In this document: positions 1,446 through 27,179 of the stretch, in pieces
Layout: each line of letters opens with the position of its first letter
Position numbering within the stretch: the stretch's first letter is position 1
Virus record (IMG/VR): IMGVR_UViG_3300026549_000015
DNA from: a virus
Strand: one strand, 5' to 3'
DNA: 38,495 nucleotides
The notes under the pieces: model-generated
What the model saw: the letters and a program-made list of their open reading frames with translations, nothing else
Database searches by the model: none
What the model was told of the DNA's origin: nothing
Program-made: the position numbers and the translations under genes

Positions 1446-1901
1446 ATGGCGAATGAAGAAAACTTAAAGCCGATACGAACTGAGAGTGAAGCAAGAGAAA
1501 AAGGGAGAAAAGGTGGAATCGCTTCCGGGAAATCCCGCCGCCGCAAGAAGGCCATGAAAGTGCACCTTCAAGAAGCTTTGGAATTATCCGTTGTTAACCC
1601 AAAAGTAAAAAAGATGATGCGCCAGGTTGGGATGGAAGACGGGAACAGCAACTACGATGCCGTGACTGCTAGTATTATTGCCGGAGCTATTCAAGGGGCA
1701 CCAGGATATGCAAGGCTGCTGATGGAACTGATCGGCGAGACTGGAGAAGAGAAGCGGGCGGATAAATCTGACAGGCGTGATGCAAAACGTTTGAGAATGG
1801 AAGAAGAGGAATTTAAACGGAAAAACGATTTGAACACTATAGACCGGGATATTAATATCCACATCGACTACGGTGGTGATTCTGATGGATCTGACAGTTA
1901 A
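1446..1901 (+). CDS. Putative terminase small subunit
   Basis: RBS GGTGAGGTG. Basic N-terminus 'REKGRKGGIASGKSRRRKK'. Sits immediately upstream of the large terminase and overlaps it. The call rests mainly on position. Confidence 0.5.
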   Translation: MANEENLKPIRTESEAREKGRKGGIASGKSRRRKKAMKVHLQEALELSVVNPKVKKMMRQVGMEDGNSNYDAVTASIIAGAIQGAPGYARLLMELIGETGEEKRADKSDRRDAKRLRMEEEEFKRKNDLNTIDRDINIHIDYGGDSDGSDS

Positions 1902-3159
1902 GGCGAATGCGGTATTCCGCGAGCCGGATCGGAGCCGTAAGCGTTACGTGATCATGAAAGGGTCGGCGGGCTCCGGAAAGAGCATGGACACCGCACAGAT
2001 GTACATCCTGCGGCTGATGAAGGACAAGGGTAGAAATCTTCTGTGCGTCCGGAAGTCTGATGTAACGAACCGGGACAGCACATTCGCAGAGCTGCAGGGC
2101 GCGATCTTCCGGATGTTCGGTGATGCCTGGCAGCGATACTGGTACATCAACTCCAGTAACATGATCATGGAGTGCCGGTCGAATCACAACCAGATCATTT
2201 TTCGAGGCGTGAATGATGATAAACAGCGTGAGAAGTTGAAGTCGATCACATTTAAGCGAGGCAAACTGACAGACGTATGGATCGAGGAAGCCACAGAGTT
2301 GACACAGCAGGACTTTGAAATTATTGATGACCGTCTCCGAGGAGAACTCCCGGACGGTCTTTTTTATCAGATCCGGATGACTTTCAATCCGGTCAGTGCT
2401 CAGCACTGGATCAAGAGAGTGTTTTTTGACCGATCGGATCCGGATGTATTAACGCACCAGTCAACATACAAGGATAACCGCTTCATTGACGCGGCATATT
2501 ATCGACGCATGGAACGACGCAAAGAGGTTGACCCGGAAGGATATCTGGTTTATGGCCTCGGGCAATGGGGCGAGACAAAGGGGCTGATCCTTCACAACTG
2601 GGAAGCAAAGGAAGTGCCGCTTGATCTGGAATGGTACGACGATGTCGCGATCGGCCAGGACTTCGGATACAATCACGCAAACGCGATCTATCCGATCGGT
2701 ATCAAGGACGGCAACCTGTACGTCATGCCCGGACTTTACGGATATGAGAAAGATACTGCTGAGTGGATCGCAGAGGCGAATGCAAAGCATCTGCCAAAAG
2801 ATCTGGTCATGTGGTGTGATTCTGCAGAGCCGGACCGGATCAAGATGTGGAGAAAGGCAGGATATCGAGCCAGAGGCGTCAGCAAGGAATCCGGCAGCAT
2901 TCATGCGCAGATCGACTGGCTGAAGGGTATTCCGGACGGAGATCGTCCGATCAATAGAAAAATATACGTGCATCCATCCAATGTGAATTTTATCAAGGAA
3001 ATTGAGCAGTGGAAGTGGAAGCACGATGACAAGCGGAACGAGTATCTTGATGAGCCCGTTCCGTTTTTTGATGACGCGATGGCCGCTCTGAGATATGGCA
3101 TCGAGGGCTGGCGCAAAGCACAGAAGGTACACGTAAAAACCTTTAAGGGAGGCATTTGA
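1885..3159 (+). CDS. terL: Terminase large subunit (PBSX/Terminase_3-like)
   Basis: Walker A 'GSAGSGKS', Walker B-like 'DVWIEEATE' and a C-terminal nuclease region 'GQDFGYNHANA...CDSAEPDRI...DDAMAALRY'. The ATG at 1885 has RBS GGTGGTGA. An alternative GTG start lies at 1873. Confidence 0.9.
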   Translation: MDLTVKANAVFREPDRSRKRYVIMKGSAGSGKSMDTAQMYILRLMKDKGRNLLCVRKSDVTNRDSTFAELQGAIFRMFGDAWQRYWYINSSNMIMECRSNHNQIIFRGVNDDKQREKLKSITFKRGKLTDVWIEEATELTQQDFEIIDDRLRGELPDGLFYQIRMTFNPVSAQHWIKRVFFDRSDPDVLTHQSTYKDNRFIDAAYYRRMERRKEVDPEGYLVYGLGQWGETKGLILHNWEAKEVPLDLEWYDDVAIGQDFGYNHANAIYPIGIKDGNLYVMPGLYGYEKDTAEWIAEANAKHLPKDLVMWCDSAEPDRIKMWRKAGYRARGVSKESGSIHAQIDWLKGIPDGDRPINRKIYVHPSNVNFIKEIEQWKWKHDDKRNEYLDEPVPFFDDAMAALRYGIEGWRKAQKVHVKTFKGGI

Positions 3160-4532
3160 CGGTGAGAATGAAACATCCATACAGACTGCCTGTTCCTCTG
3201 ACATGTGATCCTGCAGACGTTGTAAACGGCGTCAGCATGAACATGATAGACAAGTACATCGAGAAGCATAAAAAGAATCTCAGGCGTTACGAATATCTTG
3301 AGAGGCTGTACAGCGGATTTTTTGATATCGACGATGAACCGCCAAAGGAAGCATGGAAGCCGGACAACCGGTTGACGGTCCCGTTTCCAAAATACATCAC
3401 GGACACCTTCACCGGTTACGGGTACGGCATCCCGATCAAAGAGGAGCATCCAGACGATGCCATCAACGAGCGGATACATGACTTCCAGAATGACAACGAG
3501 CTTACGGATCACGAAGCTGAGCTGATCAAACGCTGCTGCATTTACGGCCATGCATGGGAGTACATCTATCAGGATGAGAATACCAGAACAAAAATGACGG
3601 TGCTCACTCCGAAAGATATATTTGTTGTGTATGATGACACGCTTCTGAGCCGGGCGCTGTTTGCAGTCAGATATGGTTATCATTCAGACAACAGCCGGAA
3701 ACCGCGCCAGCAGTACGGCGAAATCCTCACAAGGGACGAAATCATCGAGTTCGACGGAGAAAAGATCATAAACAGAAAGCAGAATCCTTACGGCCTGATC
3801 CCGTGTGTTGAGTGGCGTCTGAATGACGAGCGGTCTGGACTGTATGAGCAGGTGTCCCGCCTGATCGAACAGTATAATCATGTTATTTCCGAGAAGGCTA
3901 ATGATGTGGATGCTTTCGCAGAAGCTTATCTGGCGATAATCGGTGCGGAAGTTGATGAGAACGACATTTATCGCATCAGGGACGATAGAATCATCAACCT
4001 GTACGGTACGGATAATGCCAAGGATGTTCTGGTTCAATTCCTCACGAAACCGACAGCGGACGCAACGCAGGAAAATCTCCTGGATAGGCTGGAAAAAGAA
4101 ATCTATGAGACGTCGATGGTGGCAAATATTTCGGATGAAACATTCGGTAATGCTACCAGCGGAATAGCGCTGGCGTATAAGCTGCAGGCCATGAGCAACC
4201 TCGCAAGGATGTTCGACCGTAAGATCGAAAAATCGATCTGGAAGCGGTACAAGATCTTCTGTTCGCTGAAGACTAATGTCAGCGATCCGGAAGCATACAA
4301 GGATATTTCTATCACGATGACCAGAAACCTTCCGAAGAATATTCAGGAGGAAGCGCAGACGGCTGCACAGCTTGAGGGCGTTGTGAGCAAGGAGACACAA
4401 CTTCGGGTTCTTTCGATCGTAGATGATCCAAGGGATGAGATTCAAAAGATGCAGGACGAGGAAGACGCCAGCCAGACTGCTGCAGTCACTAATGCACTGT
4501 ACGGCAGTACGCATTCGGACGGTGAGAATTAA
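3156..4532 (+). CDS. Portal protein (SPP1 gp6-like)
   Basis: 458-aa ORF directly after terL. Portal-like motifs include 'YEYLERLYSG', 'ELIKRCCIYGHAWEYIY' and 'GIALAYKLQAMSNLARMFDRK'. The start is uncertain: TTG 3156, ATG 3168 or ATG 3237. Confidence 0.85.
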   Translation: MTVRMKHPYRLPVPLTCDPADVVNGVSMNMIDKYIEKHKKNLRRYEYLERLYSGFFDIDDEPPKEAWKPDNRLTVPFPKYITDTFTGYGYGIPIKEEHPDDAINERIHDFQNDNELTDHEAELIKRCCIYGHAWEYIYQDENTRTKMTVLTPKDIFVVYDDTLLSRALFAVRYGYHSDNSRKPRQQYGEILTRDEIIEFDGEKIINRKQNPYGLIPCVEWRLNDERSGLYEQVSRLIEQYNHVISEKANDVDAFAEAYLAIIGAEVDENDIYRIRDDRIINLYGTDNAKDVLVQFLTKPTADATQENLLDRLEKEIYETSMVANISDETFGNATSGIALAYKLQAMSNLARMFDRKIEKSIWKRYKIFCSLKTNVSDPEAYKDISITMTRNLPKNIQEEAQTAAQLEGVVSKETQLRVLSIVDDPRDEIQKMQDEEDASQTAAVTNALYGSTHSDGEN

Positions 4533-6139
4533 TGAGCAGCGCAGACTACTGGAGAAAACGCGAGGCTGAGGCTCTAAAAGAAAACCAGAAGCAGGAGAAG
4601 GACTACGATAAGCAGGTCGCAGAGATCTATCAGCAGATGATCGATGAGTGCGATGTGGATATCAAGACGTTCTATGCACGGTATGCCAGCAAAGAAGGCA
4701 TCACGATGGCAGAAGCCAAGAAGCGGGCTGACAAGCTGGACATCGAGGAGTATGGCCGCAAGGCTAAGAAGTACGTCAAGGACAAGGACTTCTCGGATCA
4801 GGCCAACGAAGAAATGCGCCTCTACAATATGACCATGAAGGTCAACCGCCTGGAGCTGCTGAAGGCAGAGCTTGGTCTTGAAATGACTGCCGGATCGGAT
4901 GAGCTGCAGAAGAAGCTCGGTGTGATGCTCGACGATCGCGCCAGAGAGTCCTACAAACGGCAGGCCGGTATTCTTGGGAAGACTGTTCCGGACGCTGACA
5001 CTTATGGACGGATGATGGACACGATCGTCAACGGCTCTTTCCATAACGCAACATGGTCGCAGCGGATCTGGGCGAACCAGGAAGCACTGCGCAGCAGGGT
5101 GAACGCTTTGCTTGTGCGTGGTCTGATCGGCGGCAGGAATCCGAGAGAGATGGCCAGAGACCTTACCAGGACGGTGCAATCCAGTCAGTCAAATGCAGAG
5201 CGCCTGATGCGTACAGAGCTGGCCAGGGTCCAGATCGGAGCCCAGCAGCAGGCGATCGCTGATGCCGGATACGATGAATATACTTTTCTGGCAATCGGTA
5301 CAGCCTGCGGTGACTGTAGAGCGCTTGATGAAAAGACCTTCAAGCTGAAGAAGATGATGCCGGGCGAAAACGCGCCGCCGATGCATCCGAATTGCAGATG
5401 CTCCGTCTGTGCAGCGATGTCCGACGAGGAGTTCAGGAAGCTGACCGGGGTGGACCCGGTGAAGCTGGACCCGGGTGCGAGCGACAAGGCAGCGAAGGAG
5501 AAAATAAAGGAAGAGAGCAAAGGACAGGAAAGAGAAAGCGCATATATACATGACGACGGAAAGAGAGACACAGGCCATGTAAATTTAGCCCTTGTAAATA
5601 CTAAAAAGTATCATGATAAATTTGAGAATCTTTCAAATCATAAGGCTGTAAACGAGTCTCTTTATCAGGAATCGATGGTTATCTTGGGAGATAGGAACAA
5701 CACAGAGTATGAGGACATTGTTGCCGTAGATGCAAGGAGTGGAAAAGTTTTGGAAAAGAACACATCTGCAGCACAATGCGGATATAAGCATAGTTGTGGC
5801 TTTACGCTAGAACAATATCAAGGTTTAGAAAAACGTGGCAAGGCGTATGAGGTGCTTCACAATCACCCAAATAGTTCTGTCCCGTCAAGAGATGATATTC
5901 GTAAATTGTTTGAAAGAGACAAACAAACGGCGTCAACAATCTGCTGCCATAATGGGAATGTTTACCGGATGGAAAAATTAAAGCCAAATAATGATATTGC
6001 TATTCTTGAAGAAAAAGCGTATACTTACTGCAAAGAGAAATATGCATATTTCGATGACGAAAAAATCGAATATGAATGTTCTTCAAGAATGATAAAGATG
6101 TTATTAAGACGTGGATATTTAAAATTCACTAAGAGGTGA
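4532..6139 (+). CDS. Head morphogenesis protein (MuF / SPP1 gp7 family) with a C-terminal RadC/JAB-like domain
   Basis: The MuF core is 'NATWSQRIWANQEAL...NAERLMRTELARVQ...GDCRALDEKTF...PPMHPNCRCSV'. From about 5534 onward an AT-rich extension contains 'EYEDIVAVDARSGKVL...AYEVLHNHPNSSVPSRDDI' (HNH..D at 5858-5899). Confidence 0.85.
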   Translation: MSSADYWRKREAEALKENQKQEKDYDKQVAEIYQQMIDECDVDIKTFYARYASKEGITMAEAKKRADKLDIEEYGRKAKKYVKDKDFSDQANEEMRLYNMTMKVNRLELLKAELGLEMTAGSDELQKKLGVMLDDRARESYKRQAGILGKTVPDADTYGRMMDTIVNGSFHNATWSQRIWANQEALRSRVNALLVRGLIGGRNPREMARDLTRTVQSSQSNAERLMRTELARVQIGAQQQAIADAGYDEYTFLAIGTACGDCRALDEKTFKLKKMMPGENAPPMHPNCRCSVCAAMSDEEFRKLTGVDPVKLDPGASDKAAKEKIKEESKGQERESAYIHDDGKRDTGHVNLALVNTKKYHDKFENLSNHKAVNESLYQESMVILGDRNNTEYEDIVAVDARSGKVLEKNTSAAQCGYKHSCGFTLEQYQGLEKRGKAYEVLHNHPNSSVPSRDDIRKLFERDKQTASTICCHNGNVYRMEKLKPNNDIAILEEKAYTYCKEKYAYFDDEKIEYECSSRMIKMLLRRGYLKFTKR

Positions 6140-6451: not shown

Positions 6452-6646
6452 ATGATTATGATTTCAACAGCATTATTTATTATCATTTTGGTGCTGATCA
6501 ACGCGCCGGCGTGGACATTTGCTCTGGTTGGCGTGTATTTTACCTTCCGGGTAATCGAACGCGTAAAGCATGAAAAGGCAAAGAAGGCACTTTTGAAGGT
6601 AATTGATGAGATTGTAAAATCATTTAAGGAGTCTGGCATTGATTAA
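6452..6646 (+). CDS. Small membrane protein with an N-terminal hydrophobic hairpin and a charged C-terminal helix
   Basis: Sequence 'MIMISTALFIIILVLINAPAWTFALVGVYFTF' followed by 'RVIERVKHEKAKKALLK'. The ATG overlaps the stop of a 26-codon upstream ORF (ATGA). Confidence 0.55.
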   Translation: MIMISTALFIIILVLINAPAWTFALVGVYFTFRVIERVKHEKAKKALLKVIDEIVKSFKESGID

Positions 6647-6926
6647 GGTTCAATACAGCAATGATCGTATTACGGTCACAGGCCACAGCGGTTACGCGCC
6701 GCCCGGCCAGGACATTGTTTGTGCCGGTGTTTCGGTGCTGGCCCAGAACCTGGTTGCCAGCATCAAGGCGCTGACAGACGACACAATTTCATACGATATC
6801 ACGCCTGGGAAGGCTGATATATATTACAGGAATCCATCAGAGAAAACGAAGACTCTGATCGATTCCTTTTTTATTGGGTGTGCAGCTATTGCGGATGCAT
6901 ATCCGGAACACGTCAAAATTTCATGA
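6639..6926 (+). CDS. prp: Prp-like cysteine protease (ribosomal-processing cysteine protease / DUF464 family)
   Basis: 'ITVTGHSGYAPPGQDIVCAGVSVLAQNL' matches the Prp signature GH(A/S)...G.DIVCA.VS and keeps the His/Cys dyad. TTG start with AAGGAG 7 nt upstream. Confidence 0.8.
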   Translation: MIKVQYSNDRITVTGHSGYAPPGQDIVCAGVSVLAQNLVASIKALTDDTISYDITPGKADIYYRNPSEKTKTLIDSFFIGCAAIADAYPEHVKIS

Positions 6927-6981
6927 ACGCAATACCGTGGGGCATATGCAATGCGGCGGGGCGCGAAAGGAGAGAAGAGAA

Positions 6982-7578
6982 ATGTTAGCCAGAAGTATGT
7001 ATCTACAGCTGTTCGCTGAAGGAGACGGGGCTGAAGGGACGCCGGCACAGGAGCCAGCGGACAATAGCAATGCCGCCGGCAGTAATGAACAGAAAAATCC
7101 GTTTGATGATTTCCTGAAGGATCCGGAGAATCAGGCCGAGTTTGACCGGCGCGTCGCCAAGGCACTGGATACGCAGAAGAAGAATCTTTCTGCTGACTAT
7201 GCGAAGAACCTGGACAGCGCGAAGAAGGAAGCCGAGAAGCTTGCCAAGATGAATGCGGATCAGAAACGCGACTACGACATGGAGAAGCTCAGAGAAGAAA
7301 ATGAGGCGCTGAAGAAGCAGGCCGCACGAGTCGAACTGAGCAAGACGGCATCTGTTCTGCTCAAGGAACAGAAGGTTGACGCGACACAGGATATCCTTGA
7401 TTTCGTGGTCGGGGAAGATGCGGAACAGACAAAGGCAAACATTGACAAATTTGTTGGCATTATCGAATCCGTCAAGAAAGCGGCAGAGGTCCAGAGGGCC
7501 ACAGGATCCGCTCCAAAGAATTACGGCGGAGGAGAGGAACTCACAGAGATCCAGAAGAGGATCGCAAAGTACAAATGA
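6982..7578 (+). CDS. Capsid scaffolding protein (DUF4355-like) with an L27-like leader
   Basis: The ATG at 6982 is preceded by AAAGGAGAG. The N-terminus is 'MLARSMYLQLFAEGDG'. The protein is acidic and coiled-coil rich ('KKEAEKLAKMNADQKRDYDMEKLREENEALKKQ') and lies directly upstream of the capsid gene. Confidence 0.8.
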   Translation: MLARSMYLQLFAEGDGAEGTPAQEPADNSNAAGSNEQKNPFDDFLKDPENQAEFDRRVAKALDTQKKNLSADYAKNLDSAKKEAEKLAKMNADQKRDYDMEKLREENEALKKQAARVELSKTASVLLKEQKVDATQDILDFVVGEDAEQTKANIDKFVGIIESVKKAAEVQRATGSAPKNYGGGEELTEIQKRIAKYK

Positions 7579-7589
7579 GGTGAAAATTT

Positions 7590-8528
7590 ATGAGAATCAG
7601 AATGAATCTGCAGCTTTTTGCAGGTCTGCAGCTTTTTGCAGGCGAGAACAACAACCAGAACGTCAGATCCTACACGAAGGACTTCAAGGAGCTTCTGACG
7701 GCAGTATTTGAGAAGGAGTCTTATTTCAGTGACTTCTTCAACGGAATCGAAGCGCTTGATGGCATCCAGCACAATGCGGTTGCTTTCTCCGTGAAGACCT
7801 CCGATATCCCGGTTGCAGTCGGAACAGCATACAGCACTGACGCCAATACCGCATTCGGCACCGGCACTGGTGCATCCTCCAGATTTGGCAATCGTACTGA
7901 GATCGTTTACACCGACACGGACGTTCCGTACAGCTGGGAGTATGTCTTCCATGAGGGCATCGACCGTCATACGGTCAACAACGACTTCAATGCAGCTGTT
8001 GCCGACAGGCTTGAACTGCAGGCGAATGCAAGGGTAGAGCAGTTCAATACACATCACAGCAAGTTCATCTCTGAGTCTGCGGGCAAGATCATTTCCGGCG
8101 GCGCGAAGGTAACGAAGGACAACGTAGCTGACCTGTTTAACGAGCTCTCCAAGTATTTCATCAATGCGAAGGTCCGCAAAGGCCTGACCAAGGTCGCAAA
8201 GGTGACTCCGGATGTTTACAACGCGATCATCGACTGCGGTCTTGCTACTACTTCCAAGAGTTCCGCAGCAAATGTTGATGCTAATACGATCACGACATTC
8301 AAGGGCTTCCAGATCGAGGAGATCCCGGAGACCGAGTTCCAGAAGAATGAAGTGGTTTACGCATATGTCACCGGCATCGGCAAGGCCTTTACCGGAATCG
8401 AGACTGCCAGAACGATTGAGTCTGAGGACTTTGACGGTGTTGCTCTGCAGGGCGCTGGCAAAGCTGGTGAGTATATTCTTCCGGCCAATAAGGCGGCTGT
8501 GGCAAAGGTAACTGTAACGGGAGCGTAA
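7590..8528 (+). CDS. Major capsid protein with a duplicated L27-like leader
   Basis: 312 aa, RBS GAGGTGA, positioned after the scaffold gene. The N-terminus is 'MRIRMNLQLFAGLQLFAGENNN'. Confidence 0.8.
   Translation: MRIRMNLQLFAGLQLFAGENNNQNVRSYTKDFKELLTAVFEKESYFSDFFNGIEALDGIQHNAVAFSVKTSDIPVAVGTAYSTDANTAFGTGTGASSRFGNRTEIVYTDTDVPYSWEYVFHEGIDRHTVNNDFNAAVADRLELQANARVEQFNTHHSKFISESAGKIISGGAKVTKDNVADLFNELSKYFINAKVRKGLTKVAKVTPDVYNAIIDCGLATTSKSSAANVDANTITTFKGFQIEEIPETEFQKNEVVYAYVTGIGKAFTGIETARTIESEDFDGVALQGAGKAGEYILPANKAAVAKVTVTGA
7608..7643 (+). repeat. 18-bp tandem duplication (ctgcagctttttgcaggt / ctgcagctttttgcaggc) encoding LQLFAG twice
   Basis: Read directly from the sequence; 17 of 18 bases are identical. 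Confidence 0.95.
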
Positions 8529-8540
8529 GGAGAATAACGG

Positions 8541-8738
8541 ATGTACAAGGTCATCAAAGCATTTCATGATCTGCAGGATCCTGAGAAGGATGGGTATCAC
8601 TTCTACAATACAGGAGATACTTATCCGAGAACCGGAATGAAGCCGACGGCAGAAAGAGTTGGTGAGCTTTCCGGAGCAGACAATGCTCAGAAGGAACCTC
8701 TGATCAAAGAAGTAAAGGCGGCCCGGAAGACGAAATAA
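8541..8738 (+). CDS. Small conserved head-module protein, function unknown
   Basis: 65 aa, RBS AAGGAGA, lies between the capsid and connector genes. Confidence 0.6.
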   Translation: MYKVIKAFHDLQDPEKDGYHFYNTGDTYPRTGMKPTAERVGELSGADNAQKEPLIKEVKAARKTK

Positions 8739-10132: not shown

Positions 10133-10675
10133 ATGATGAAATTGAATCTTCAGCTCTTTGCTGAGACAGTGCCTGGCAAGAAGATAATCTACAAGTTCAG
10201 ACTGCTTGAAGATGCGGAAAAAGAAGCTGCGTGGACTATCGCATTCTCGGAAGAGAACGAAAATGATATCTCTGTGGATGCGGATTCTACAGCAACCAAG
10301 GACGGATCTGTAAGGACTCCGTCTGTGCCGGAGATTGAAATCACGGCGACTGCACTGCTTGCGAAGGGCGACGATAAGATCACCAAGATTAAGAACGCAA
10401 TGCTGAAGAACAAGCTGTTCGAGATCTGGGAGATCAACCTGGAAGAACAGGCAAAGACTGCTGGTAAGTACAAGGGCACCTACTATCAGGGTTACTGCAC
10501 TAAATGGGACCTCTCATCTAGCGCAGAGGATATCGCGGAGGCAGAGCTGACCTTTGGCGTCAACGGAATCGGTGCAGATGGTGAGTGTACCGTCACAGAC
10601 GATGAAGTCGAAGAAGCATCTTATGTATTCACGGATACAGTCAAAAAGGAACCTGATAACAAGACCGGCAATTAA
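10133..10675 (+). CDS. Major tail (tube) protein, phi13-like, with an L27-like leader
   Basis: 180 aa, immediately upstream of the G/GT chaperone genes. N-terminus 'MMKLNLQLFAETVPGKK'. Confidence 0.75.
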   Translation: MMKLNLQLFAETVPGKKIIYKFRLLEDAEKEAAWTIAFSEENENDISVDADSTATKDGSVRTPSVPEIEITATALLAKGDDKITKIKNAMLKNKLFEIWEINLEEQAKTAGKYKGTYYQGYCTKWDLSSSAEDIAEAELTFGVNGIGADGECTVTDDEVEEASYVFTDTVKKEPDNKTGN

Positions 10676-25164: not shown

Positions 25165-26307
25165 TTATAAAACAGCACTGATTTTCTCCATTTCCCTGCG
25201 CTTCGTGTCCTCCATAACATCACAATACAGATCCATTGTAACGGCAAAGGATGAGTGACCGAGAATGGCCTGGAGCGTCTTCGGGTCCATCCCGTTTTCG
25301 ATGCACCTGGTGGCGAAGCAGTGGCGCAGAGTATGCAGCGAAAAGTGCGGAACAGTTTTATCCTCTTCCTGCATCCTTGCGATCGCTTTGTCCATTTCTT
25401 TTCTGATATTGGTATCGCAGATTGGCGTTCCAAATTCTGTTGTAAAAACCAGATCGTCAAGGCCGGCCTTCGGCTTCCAGTATTTCCCAACAAGCAACCG
25501 TTCTTTTTTCTGCACAATAGACCGCTCCTTAAGGAGACTATACAGCTTGCCGTTTTTCATCATTGGAATGGTACGCCTGCTTGCTTCAGACTTTGGAGTG
25601 TCCAGGTATTGCCCTTTACCAGGTATGTAGCTAAGTGTATGCCTGATGTGGATCTCGCACGTCCGATAATCGATATCACTCCACGACAGACCTAATATTT
25701 CCCCGATCCGCATACCGGTCAAGGTGGCCATGCGGCATATAGGATAATACCGGCTGTCTTTCATGTATTCCAGGAATTTGTCCTCCTGTTCTTTTGTCAA
25801 AGCCTTCTTTTTCTCCCTCCTGGTAAACTTTGGCGTTGTCACGGAATCCATCGGATTTTTTGAAATGATTCCGGACTGTACCGCCTGCTGCAAACTATCA
25901 TACAGCAGGAAATGAGAGGTAGAAGCCGTTGACTTAGAATAATTCTTGGCCATCCTGGTTACAAAACGCTGCAACTGCTCCGGGCGGAGAGAAGAGATAT
26001 TGCGTTGACCGAATTCCGGTTCAATATATCGGTGGAAGTTGCGCCGGTAAAAGTCCAGCGTTGATATCTTGCAGTCCGCTGTCTTATAAGTGTCGATCCA
26101 TTCATTGAACCATGCCGAGAAGGAAACTTTTCGATCCTTGCTGTATAGACCATGAGCGACTTCATATCTTTTGTCATTCAGCTGTTTCTTGGCTTTTGCC
26201 AGCTTGTCACAGTATCCGCTGTATGTTTTCCCATCATACTTGAAGCGCCACATATACCTGCCATCTTTGCGCAAGGTAATGCCTGTCGGCAGGTTATTGC
26301 TTTTCAT
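25165..26307 (-). CDS. int: Tyrosine recombinase / phage integrase
   Basis: The start 'MKSNNLPTGITLRKDGRYMWRF' follows GAAAGGAGGA. The N-terminal part is SAM-like. The catalytic region is 'RMATLTGMRIGE...HTLRHCFATRCIENGMDPKTLQAILGHSSFAVTMDLYCDV'. Confidence 0.9.
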   Translation of the reverse strand: MKSNNLPTGITLRKDGRYMWRFKYDGKTYSGYCDKLAKAKKQLNDKRYEVAHGLYSKDRKVSFSAWFNEWIDTYKTADCKISTLDFYRRNFHRYIEPEFGQRNISSLRPEQLQRFVTRMAKNYSKSTASTSHFLLYDSLQQAVQSGIISKNPMDSVTTPKFTRREKKKALTKEQEDKFLEYMKDSRYYPICRMATLTGMRIGEILGLSWSDIDYRTCEIHIRHTLSYIPGKGQYLDTPKSEASRRTIPMMKNGKLYSLLKERSIVQKKERLLVGKYWKPKAGLDDLVFTTEFGTPICDTNIRKEMDKAIARMQEEDKTVPHFSLHTLRHCFATRCIENGMDPKTLQAILGHSSFAVTMDLYCDVMEDTKRREMEKISAVL

Positions 26308-26375
26308 ATATCCTCCTTTCGTGGTATAATAAAAGAGCATGATAATACCACTTGCTTGTAGAGTATTCGTGCGCG

Positions 26376-26410
26376 GCCCTGATCTGTTGCAGCAGGTCAG
26401 GGCATTTTTA
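26376..26410 (+). terminator. Hairpin plus T-tract oriented on the + strand between the repressor and integrase genes
   Basis: gccctgatctg / caggtcagggc forms an 11-bp stem with one mismatch, followed by attttta. Confidence 0.4.
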
Positions 26411-26470
26411 TAGAGTTCAACACATTTTAAGTTTAAACCACACTTTTTCTGGACTGAAACTACAGGTTTC

Positions 26471-27127
26471 TTAGTCATCATATTCCTGCTTGTGATACAC
26501 ACCAGCCAGTTCACCAAGCACCCAGACATCATCGTCAGAATCTATGATAATGGGACCATATTTCTCATTGCATGGCTGCAGGATAACGTGCTGATCAGTC
26601 TTGTAGTATTTCTTAAGGACAGCGGAATTTTCTGCGCCGTACACGATGCCGTATATATGACCGTTTTCCAGTTCGAAGTCTCTCCGAAGGAAAGCAATGT
26701 CGCCATCATGGATGCCGGCGCCCTCCATCGAATCACCGTGTACGTTTAAACAGTAATCAGCTTTTATGGATTTATCAACAAAAAAAATACCTACGTAATT
26801 AGAATCATTGAGTACACCGTCACCGGCGCAGACAGTTCCGAGAATAGGGATAGGATAAGCGCCCGGAACGGAGACGTTGGAAGGAAGAGAGGAATTATCT
26901 CTATCATCATGGTGTTTTTCTACCAGATCAGATTTTGAACATCCAAAATAGCGAGCTAGTAATTCTATTTTGTCGATTCTTGGATAAGTTTTCCCATTTA
27001 TCCAGTCCGAAACGGTCATATAACTTAACCCTAATGCTTCACAAATATCTTTTCTCGTCTTGCCGGTTTTGTCCATATAATAAGAAATATTTTGAGCCAT
27101 AATTTTTTTATTACCCAGATCACTCAT
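26471..27127 (-). CDS. cI: CI-type repressor (XRE HTH plus S24/LexA-like peptidase domain)
   Basis: 'IMAQNISYYMDKTGKTRKDICEALGLSYMTVSDWINGKTYP' is the HTH. 'VHGDSMEGAGIHDGDIAFLRR...AVLKKYY' is the S24 Ser/Lys-type domain. Start is probably 27127 (MSDLGNKK); alternatives are 27133 and 27151. Confidence 0.85.
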   Translation of the reverse strand: MSDLGNKKIMAQNISYYMDKTGKTRKDICEALGLSYMTVSDWINGKTYPRIDKIELLARYFGCSKSDLVEKHHDDRDNSSLPSNVSVPGAYPIPILGTVCAGDGVLNDSNYVGIFFVDKSIKADYCLNVHGDSMEGAGIHDGDIAFLRRDFELENGHIYGIVYGAENSAVLKKYYKTDQHVILQPCNEKYGPIIIDSDDDVWVLGELAGVYHKQEYDD

Positions 27128-27150
27128 ATGCATACCCCTTTCATGACACA

Positions 27151-27179
27151 ATTATACAATTTTATCCGTGATTTTTCAA
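27151..27179 (-). promoter_or_regulatory. Leftward sigma-70-like promoter for the repressor gene
   Basis: The minus strand reads TTGAAA-17 nt-TATAAT (-35 at 27174-27179, -10 at 27151-27156). An operator half-site lies in the spacer. Confidence 0.6.

Follow-up and report, generated by a model that had tools for sequence, protein, structure and literature searches.

The stretch of DNA analysed here, which we call the window, is the 38,495-nucleotide virus record IMGVR_UViG_3300026549_000015 of IMG/VR, from a gut phage, whose gene content (integrase, repressor, replication, packaging, head and tail genes) is that of a complete temperate siphovirus genome. Within its head module an open reading frame (ORF) at 6639..6926 on the + strand encodes a phage Prp-family cysteine protease of 95 amino acids (aa) (PF04327, phrog_4478). 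It is followed by the genes for the head scaffolding protein (6982..7578, +; 198 aa, DUF4355, PF14265 E 1e-24, phrog_172), the major capsid protein (7590..8528, +; 312 aa, phrog_840 E 1.4e-117) and, further on, the major tail (tube) protein (10133..10675, +; 180 aa, PF06199 E 2.6e-15, phrog_238). The three structural genes share one operon with the protease gene, and each of their products begins with a short leader resembling that of ribosomal protein L27. Prp has been studied as an essential host enzyme and antibiotic target, and phage 80alpha is the textbook case of a phage that borrows the Prp of its host. An earlier note on this DNA, made from the sequence alone, had placed a phage Prp directly upstream of scaffold and capsid genes with L27-like leaders, and the sequence and profile matches bear this arrangement out.

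A Prp-family protease in the head module

The ORF opens with TTG, 7 nt past an AAGGAG ribosome-binding site, and its product reads MIKVQYSNDRITVTGHSGYAPPGQDIVCAGVS...; in relatives the Prp gene starts at the same position, with ATG or TTG as codon. The protein matches the Pfam family Peptidase_Prp (PF04327) along the entire 90-position profile, from 1 to 90 (E 6.3e-21; 74.9 bits, the cut-off being 27), and the PHROG phrog_4478 'peptidase' (E 2.7e-27). In an alignment with Prps of known structure from S. mutans, S. pneumoniae and S. aureus (2g0i, 2idl, 4peo/7kld), its His16, Cys28, Asp25 and Gly23 fall on His22, Cys34, Asp31 and Gly29 of the S. aureus enzyme, all of which are required for activity (mutational work summarised in PMC9405229). 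The same four residues are invariant across 28 phage relatives. An AlphaFold2 (AF2) model of the window Prp, with a mean predicted local distance difference test score (pLDDT) of 88.9, contains strands E2-7, E10-14, E50-55, E58-63 and E92-94 and helices H25-45 and H68-87, a fold that agrees with the Prp fold definition of PMC9405229. When this model was compared with the PDB by Foldseek, the 14 best matches were all Prp structures, with template modelling (TM) scores of 0.73-0.91. The earlier note's reading of a Prp signature with an intact His/Cys dyad is thus upheld by profile, fold and alignment with S. aureus Prp: the ORF encodes a Prp-family protein with intact catalytic residues.

Against the NCBIfam equivalogs for 'ribosomal-processing cysteine protease Prp' the window protein reaches at best 44 bits versus a cut-off of 185; these cut-offs do not separate phage from host Prps, since a genuine Lachnospiraceae operon Prp also falls below its own (68.7 versus 135). 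The window gene sits between the MuF and scaffold genes and not between rplU (L21) and rpmA (L27). Prophage copies of the gene carry the name 'ribosomal-processing cysteine protease Prp' in bacterial genomes, a name that properly denotes the enzyme processing L27.

The window Prp has the family, fold and catalytic residues of host Prp (MEROPS C108; SAOUHSC_01756/YsxB in S. aureus), which acts on L27 and on the 80alpha proteins gp46 (scaffold) and gp47 (capsid). Unlike that enzyme, the window Prp is phage-encoded, lies inside a head module and is 34-36% identical to the Prps of host rplU-prp-rpmA operons (36% for a Lachnospiraceae contig, 34% for a Syntrophomonadaceae metagenome-assembled genome (MAG); host copies in this context include L098). 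This distance indicates an old phage lineage and not a recent capture. The window protein is also shorter, at 95 aa versus 106-108 aa for the S. aureus and Lachnospiraceae operon Prps and about 101 aa for that of Syntrophomonadaceae. Among phages, the cysteine protease of Streptococcus phage Cp-1 is the other member of the same clan (MEROPS clan CR) and is likewise phage-encoded and trims the N-terminus of its own capsid protein (PMC9405229), and a Cp-1-like protein of phage SOCP and 'cysteine protease' entries of uncultured podoviruses are among the structural matches to the window model. The Cp-1 enzyme, however, belongs to a different family and to a podovirus, and it removes a prosegment of ~40 residues, whereas the leaders in the window are short and L27-like.

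L27-like leaders and their pairing with Prp

The documented Prp motif is MLxx(D/N)LQ(F/L)F'A, cut between Phe (P1) and Ala (P1') (PMC9405229), and the motif (N/D)LQ(F/L)F'A is common to the host-Prp/80alpha system and the leaders in the window. The scaffold protein begins MLARSMYLQLFAEGDG and matches DUF4355; its leader, MLARSMYLQLF (6982..7014, +), has a predicted cut before Ala12 and is identical in 9 related contigs. The longest ORF would place the scaffold start at 6874, which we rejected in favour of the ATG at 6982. The capsid protein begins MRIRMNLQLFAGLQLFAGENNN, and its leader, MRIRMNLQLF followed by AGLQLF (7590..7637, +), contains two nested predicted cut sites. The tail tube protein, which begins MMKLNLQLFAETVPGKK, carries the third leader, MMKLNLQLF (10133..10159, +). 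As the published Prp cut is F'A, the predicted mature ends are AEGDG... for the scaffold, AGENNN... for the capsid and AETVPG... (AETVPGKK) for the tail tube. Of the earlier note's list of substrates the scaffold and capsid stand, while the tail tube leader, which lies beyond the coordinates it considered, had been missed; it had also drawn the cut one residue too late.

The placement of these leaders is not a matter of chance. Translated in six frames, the window contains LQLFA 4 times versus ~0.07 expected, and all 4 occurrences lie within the first 17 residues of the scaffold, capsid or tail tube gene; in the census of related loci described below, N-terminal motifs number 202 versus 3.8. 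The leaders also behave as add-ons, since family profiles begin just past them and some homologous tubes lack them and start at the predicted mature end: the phrog_840 match on the capsid protein starts at residue 19, the matches on the tail tube start at residue 13 (PF06199) and residue 12 (phrog_238), and in some Prp-carrying phages naturally leaderless homologous tubes start MAVIQGKR or MSVIQGKR.

The doubling of LQLFAG in the capsid leader is encoded by a perfect tandem repeat at 7607-7642 on the + strand (Tandem Repeats Finder: period 18, 2.0 copies, 100% match). Comparison with prophage L005 (95%-related) shows an insertion in frame, with identical flanks. Among 10 contigs that come from independent samples and are otherwise nearly identical, the repeat occurs in 3 (the window, L109 and L114) and is missing from the 7 others, which have an identical Prp and in which the single form reads MRIRMNLQLFAGENNN. 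Recurrence in independent samples led us to reject an assembly artefact as its source. The 18-bp duplication is a genuine standing polymorphism of the phage population, and the doubled leader is evidently tolerated.

Pairing of Prp with such leaders recurs well beyond the window. Of 50,697 phage records searched by tblastn, 22 contain a relative of the window Prp, none of them Staphylococcus phages. In four isolated phages the genes neighbouring Prp were read and bear leaders: in Dorea phage DO134P1 (MANLQLF'A, ...GLQVF'T and ...GLQVF'S), in Acutalibacter phage Fontainebleau (NLQLF'D on three proteins), in Lactococcus phage TP712, whose Prp is orf36 (NLQRF'A, NLQRF'S), and in Brochothrix phage BL3 (NLQLF'A, NLQKF'A, DLQKF'A). 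The Prp gene of DO134P1 is unannotated in its record (OP172779.1, L001:6001-6285). IMG/VR contains at least 580 contigs with a relative of the window Prp, and we searched the 80 best Prp-carrying loci for the motif [LMIV]Q.F[ASGTD] at protein N-termini, with the expectation calculated from composition. This census gave 202 N-terminal motifs versus 3.8 expected, with at least one motif in 77 of the 80 loci and three in 53, counts that are not independent because many of the loci are near-duplicates. Leader-bearing proteins include capsid proteins of two unrelated families (about 298 and 392 aa) as well as tail proteins of different kinds; it is therefore Prp, and no single cargo family, that the association tracks. 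Furthermore, prophage Prp copies in [Clostridium] scindens (L006-L008) and other Lachnospiraceae show the same order of portal, MuF, Prp, scaffold and capsid genes. As a genomic pattern, the pairing of Prp and leaders is well supported.

Two loci in MAGs depart from this pattern. In a prophage of the Lachnospiraceae MAG UBA7109 (L092:2969-4916), (N/D)LRIH replaces (N/D)LQLF on the scaffold and capsid proteins, beside an intact Prp and a leaderless tail tube. This locus is a singleton, no LRIH motif having been found among its viral relatives, and it represents either a shifted specificity or a decaying prophage. In a Ruminococcus sp. MAG (L094:9989-11418) Prp is immediately followed by a tail protein with a leader (...DLQLF'ADVV) and then by more tail genes, with a predicted membrane protein upstream and no head genes between Prp and the tail genes; the locus may be a tail-only element or a rearranged prophage.

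Phage Prp homologues are already catalogued, as phrog_4478 'peptidase' and as a 'YsxB-like protein' of uncultured Siphoviridae, with the same family and genomic position as the window Prp. The 'peptidase' label is also found in Brochothrix BL3, Lactococcus PLgT-1 and Acutalibacter Fontainebleau; these are labels alone, unlinked to the leaders. In the literature searched we found no paper linking a phage-encoded Prp to leader-bearing scaffold, capsid or tail proteins, though the founding papers (Wall et al. 2015, 2017) could contain an earlier remark. A Shewanella phage paper mentions Prp solely while annotating a protease ORF, and recent papers of the Prp discoverers name only the host enzyme and 'some staphylococcal bacteriophages' (PMC12324487; bioRxiv 10.64898/2026.08.10.744006). 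The database labels, the clan-CR protease of Cp-1 and the cleavage of 80alpha proteins by host Prp were thus known; the link between phage Prp and leader-bearing scaffold, capsid and tail proteins, as read from genomes, appears to be new.

Which enzyme might remove the leaders, and to what end

In 80alpha, host Prp cleaves the leaders of both scaffold and capsid (PMC5744158, PMC9405229). The cleavage removes 13-14 residues, precedes expansion and is dispensable for viability, unlike the scaffold leader itself, which is required for assembly (PMC5744158). The window shares with 80alpha the type of head module and a homologous DUF4355 scaffold, 32.5% identical over residues 8-196 (tblastn), and differs from it in that the tail tube protein is a predicted substrate as well. 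We infer from the genomic patterns that in the window phage, too, the leaders are cleaved, and that it is the phage Prp that probably removes those of scaffold, capsid and tail tube. The phage would make its own Prp-type cysteine protease from the late operon, alongside the substrates, each of which would be made with its short N-terminal leader (...LQLF'A...). The enzyme would bind the leader as S. aureus Prp binds L27, through Leu at P4, Gln at P3 and Phe at P1, and would cut between Phe and Ala to leave AEGDG on the scaffold, AGENNN on the capsid and AETVPGKK on the tail tube. If 80alpha is a guide, the role of the leader probably lies in folding or assembly control, and cutting would take place before or during assembly and not as the trigger of capsid expansion. 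With an enzyme of its own the phage would no longer depend on how much Prp the host makes or on what that Prp can cut, host Prp being occupied with L27 and ribosome assembly.

Alternatively, host Prp might do the cutting, as it does in 80alpha, with the phage copy acting as a dosage booster that spares L27 processing and ribosome assembly. Many phages with leaders and a homologous scaffold indeed manage without a Prp: the scaffold family is shared by 156 phage records, compared with the 22 that hold a Prp relative, and a leader without Prp is found in the head-tail stretches examined of 80alpha, Lactobacillus CL1 and Enterococcus IME197 (a hidden Markov model (HMM) search of the 12.6-kb head-tail stretch of 80alpha returned no Prp-like ORF). 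In the stretch examined of Streptococcus Javan141 there is neither leader nor Prp, and the phages compared therefore present three states: leader with host enzyme, leader with phage enzyme, and no leader. The leaders themselves are also close to the host type. The comparison with L27 that the earlier note had suggested was run at family level, on 120 Lachnospiraceae-like L27 proteins, a set that may not match the L27 of the actual host and whose query was biased towards Phe at P2; their leaders read M[LM][NKR][ML]NLQ[FL]F'AHKKG, and the tail tube leader MMKLNLQLF'A is nearly identical to some of them, such as MMKLNLQFF'AHKKG. On the prime side, however, phage leaders and L27 differ systematically, with acidic or small residues in the former and His-Lys-Lys in the latter, and the phage Prp has long diverged from the host enzymes, as its 34-36% identity to them indicates.

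A further argument against the host as cutter comes from a natural variant of the enzyme. In the Prps of the Fontainebleau clade, which comprises 11 loci (Fontainebleau itself, L002, and 10 IMG/VR relatives, L135-L144; Prp identity 70-100%) with an active-site region reading GQNIVCAA, Asn replaces the equivalent of Asp25. At these Asn-type loci P1' is Asp in 23 of 23 substrates; at Asp-type loci it is Ala in 291 of 302, as it is in all 33 distinct Lachnospiraceae-like L27 leaders, so that F'D sites are absent from every L27 in the census. The Asn/Asp change may be a charge swap between enzyme and substrate. Together with the prime-side differences from L27, the covariation argues that phage Prps act on their own substrates, and we consider it unlikely that the host enzyme is the cutter and the phage enzyme a booster. 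The linked protease-substrate module that the earlier note had envisaged is likewise strengthened, both by this covariation of active site and P1' in one clade and by the presence of leaders in 77 of the 80 Prp loci across protein families.

Several points weigh against leader removal by the phage Prp. Cleavage of both proteins is dispensable in 80alpha, which makes the benefit of a dedicated phage enzyme less evident. Since the window leaders are canonical LQLF'A, a host Lachnospiraceae Prp might be enough to cut them. The Asn/Asp covariation occurs in a single clade and therefore amounts to one evolutionary event, and that clade lies outside the lineage of the window. Near-duplication among the 80 census loci means that their counts overstate the support. 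Three IMG/VR contigs (L016, L019 and L049) have an intact Prp and a scaffold and capsid without leader, with no L27-like leader elsewhere in the 12 kb read, and their Prp may have another role. Finally, the literature searched holds no biochemical or proteomic evidence of cleavage for the window phage or its relatives.

The phage Prp could also be mainly a leader-binding chaperone or assembly factor that holds scaffold, capsid and tube subunits until they pass to the assembling structure, with cutting incidental. The requirement of 80alpha assembly for the scaffold leader and not for its cleavage (PMC5744158) is consistent with such a role, as is the tight binding of its product by S. aureus Prp, which has been proposed to be an L27 chaperone (PMC9405229). 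The invariance of the active-site His, Cys, Asp and Gly in the 28 phage relatives argues instead for selection on catalysis, and we find a mainly non-catalytic role improbable. Another possibility is that the phage Prp is directed at L27 or other motif-bearing proteins of the host so as to interfere with translation, its gene position being incidental. This would suit the three contigs with leaderless scaffold and capsid, and is very improbable given the near-universal association with leader-bearing structural genes and the fixed gene order inside the head module.

A bolder possibility is that phage Prps and leaders form co-evolving, partly private protease-substrate pairs that insulate head and tail assembly from the host enzyme, with one 95-aa protease licensing the self-assembling scaffold, capsid and tail tube proteins together, as a shared assembly checkpoint. 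We offer this as a tentative idea and regard it as rather doubtful in this full form. Its clearest example would be the Asn-variant enzyme with its F'D sites, as no L27 in the census shows F'D. Were such private pairs real, the Prp phages would amount to a natural collection of very small, sequence-specific proteases whose specificities have shifted.

Many phages of gut and dairy Firmicutes possess a Prp of their own alongside scaffold, capsid and tail tube proteins tagged with leaders. Systems in which the phage encodes enzyme as well as substrates, and of which natural specificity variants exist, make the purpose of the leader and of its removal testable. In proteomic and structural work on such phages, capsid, scaffold and tail proteins have probably been assigned the wrong mature N-termini, and tests of Prp inhibitors in lysogens could be harder to interpret because of the phage-borne Prp.

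Head type and other features of the genome

The earlier note had presented the Prp as replacing an HK97-type prohead protease. Such a protease is indeed absent from the head module, as no window protein matches a HK97- or ClpP-type prohead protease family (Peptidase_S78, U35, S49 or S14) in Pfam at E <= 1e-3; the sole other peptidase family found by Pfam in the window is that of the S24 repressor, outside the head module. Replacement is nevertheless the wrong framing. The head module is of the 80alpha type (SPP1 portal, MuF protein, separate DUF4355 scaffold), a type that uses no prohead protease, and the cut known from 80alpha is small, early and dispensable. The HK97-type (S78/U35) and ClpP/S49-type prohead proteases resemble the window Prp in being late genes located between portal and capsid and in having capsid substrates, which for Prp are predicted. 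They differ in fold and chemistry, which are unrelated, in being packaged in the prohead and in digesting the scaffold or the delta domain, whereas Prp is predicted to remove 9-16 residues and in 80alpha acts before expansion.

Gene order in the window runs from the large terminase (1873-3159) through the SPP1-type portal protein (3156..4532, +; PF05133 E 4e-106), the MuF-like minor head protein (4532..6139, +; PF04233) and two small ORFs to Prp, scaffold, capsid, connectors and tail tube; downstream of the tail tube gene lie those for a chaperone, tape measure, Dit/Tal, fibres and amidase. Promoter and terminator scans of the module gave hits at chance level only. Apart from replication genes, the window also carries an integrase (25165-26532, -) and an S24/HTH repressor (26471-27151, -). 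A genome scan for host prophages returned none that was close, the best matches being Lachnospiraceae MAGs at 57-61% identity.

The C-terminal ~200 aa of the MuF-like protein (window 5531-6139) have no sequence match in Pfam, PHROG or PDB. They contain an invariant HNHPNxSxPSxxD motif and give an AF2 model with pLDDT 92.6, for which the best, though weak, Foldseek matches are the JAB/MPN+ proteins JAMM1, RadC, a bacterial Ubl-deubiquitinase and CSN5. The domain also occurs free-standing, as a 284-aa protein in many phage contigs. This JAB/MPN-like fold, as modelled, would make it a second putative peptidase in the head module, and its role may be that of an injected effector or of deubiquitinase-like counter-defence. 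We rejected it as the leader protease: JAB enzymes have no known link to the motif, and most relatives that carry Prp lack the domain.

Directly after the capsid gene, a 65-aa ORF at 8541-8738 (MYKVIKAFHDLQD...), whose position is kept in relatives, matches PHROGs labelled 'Arc-like repressor' with E 4e-20. The label is odd between capsid and connector, and the gene may in fact encode a small protein of the head. Upstream of the packaging genes, positions 13-1026 encode a ParB_N + DUF4417 fusion protein, which is likewise present in the 95%-related prophage L005.

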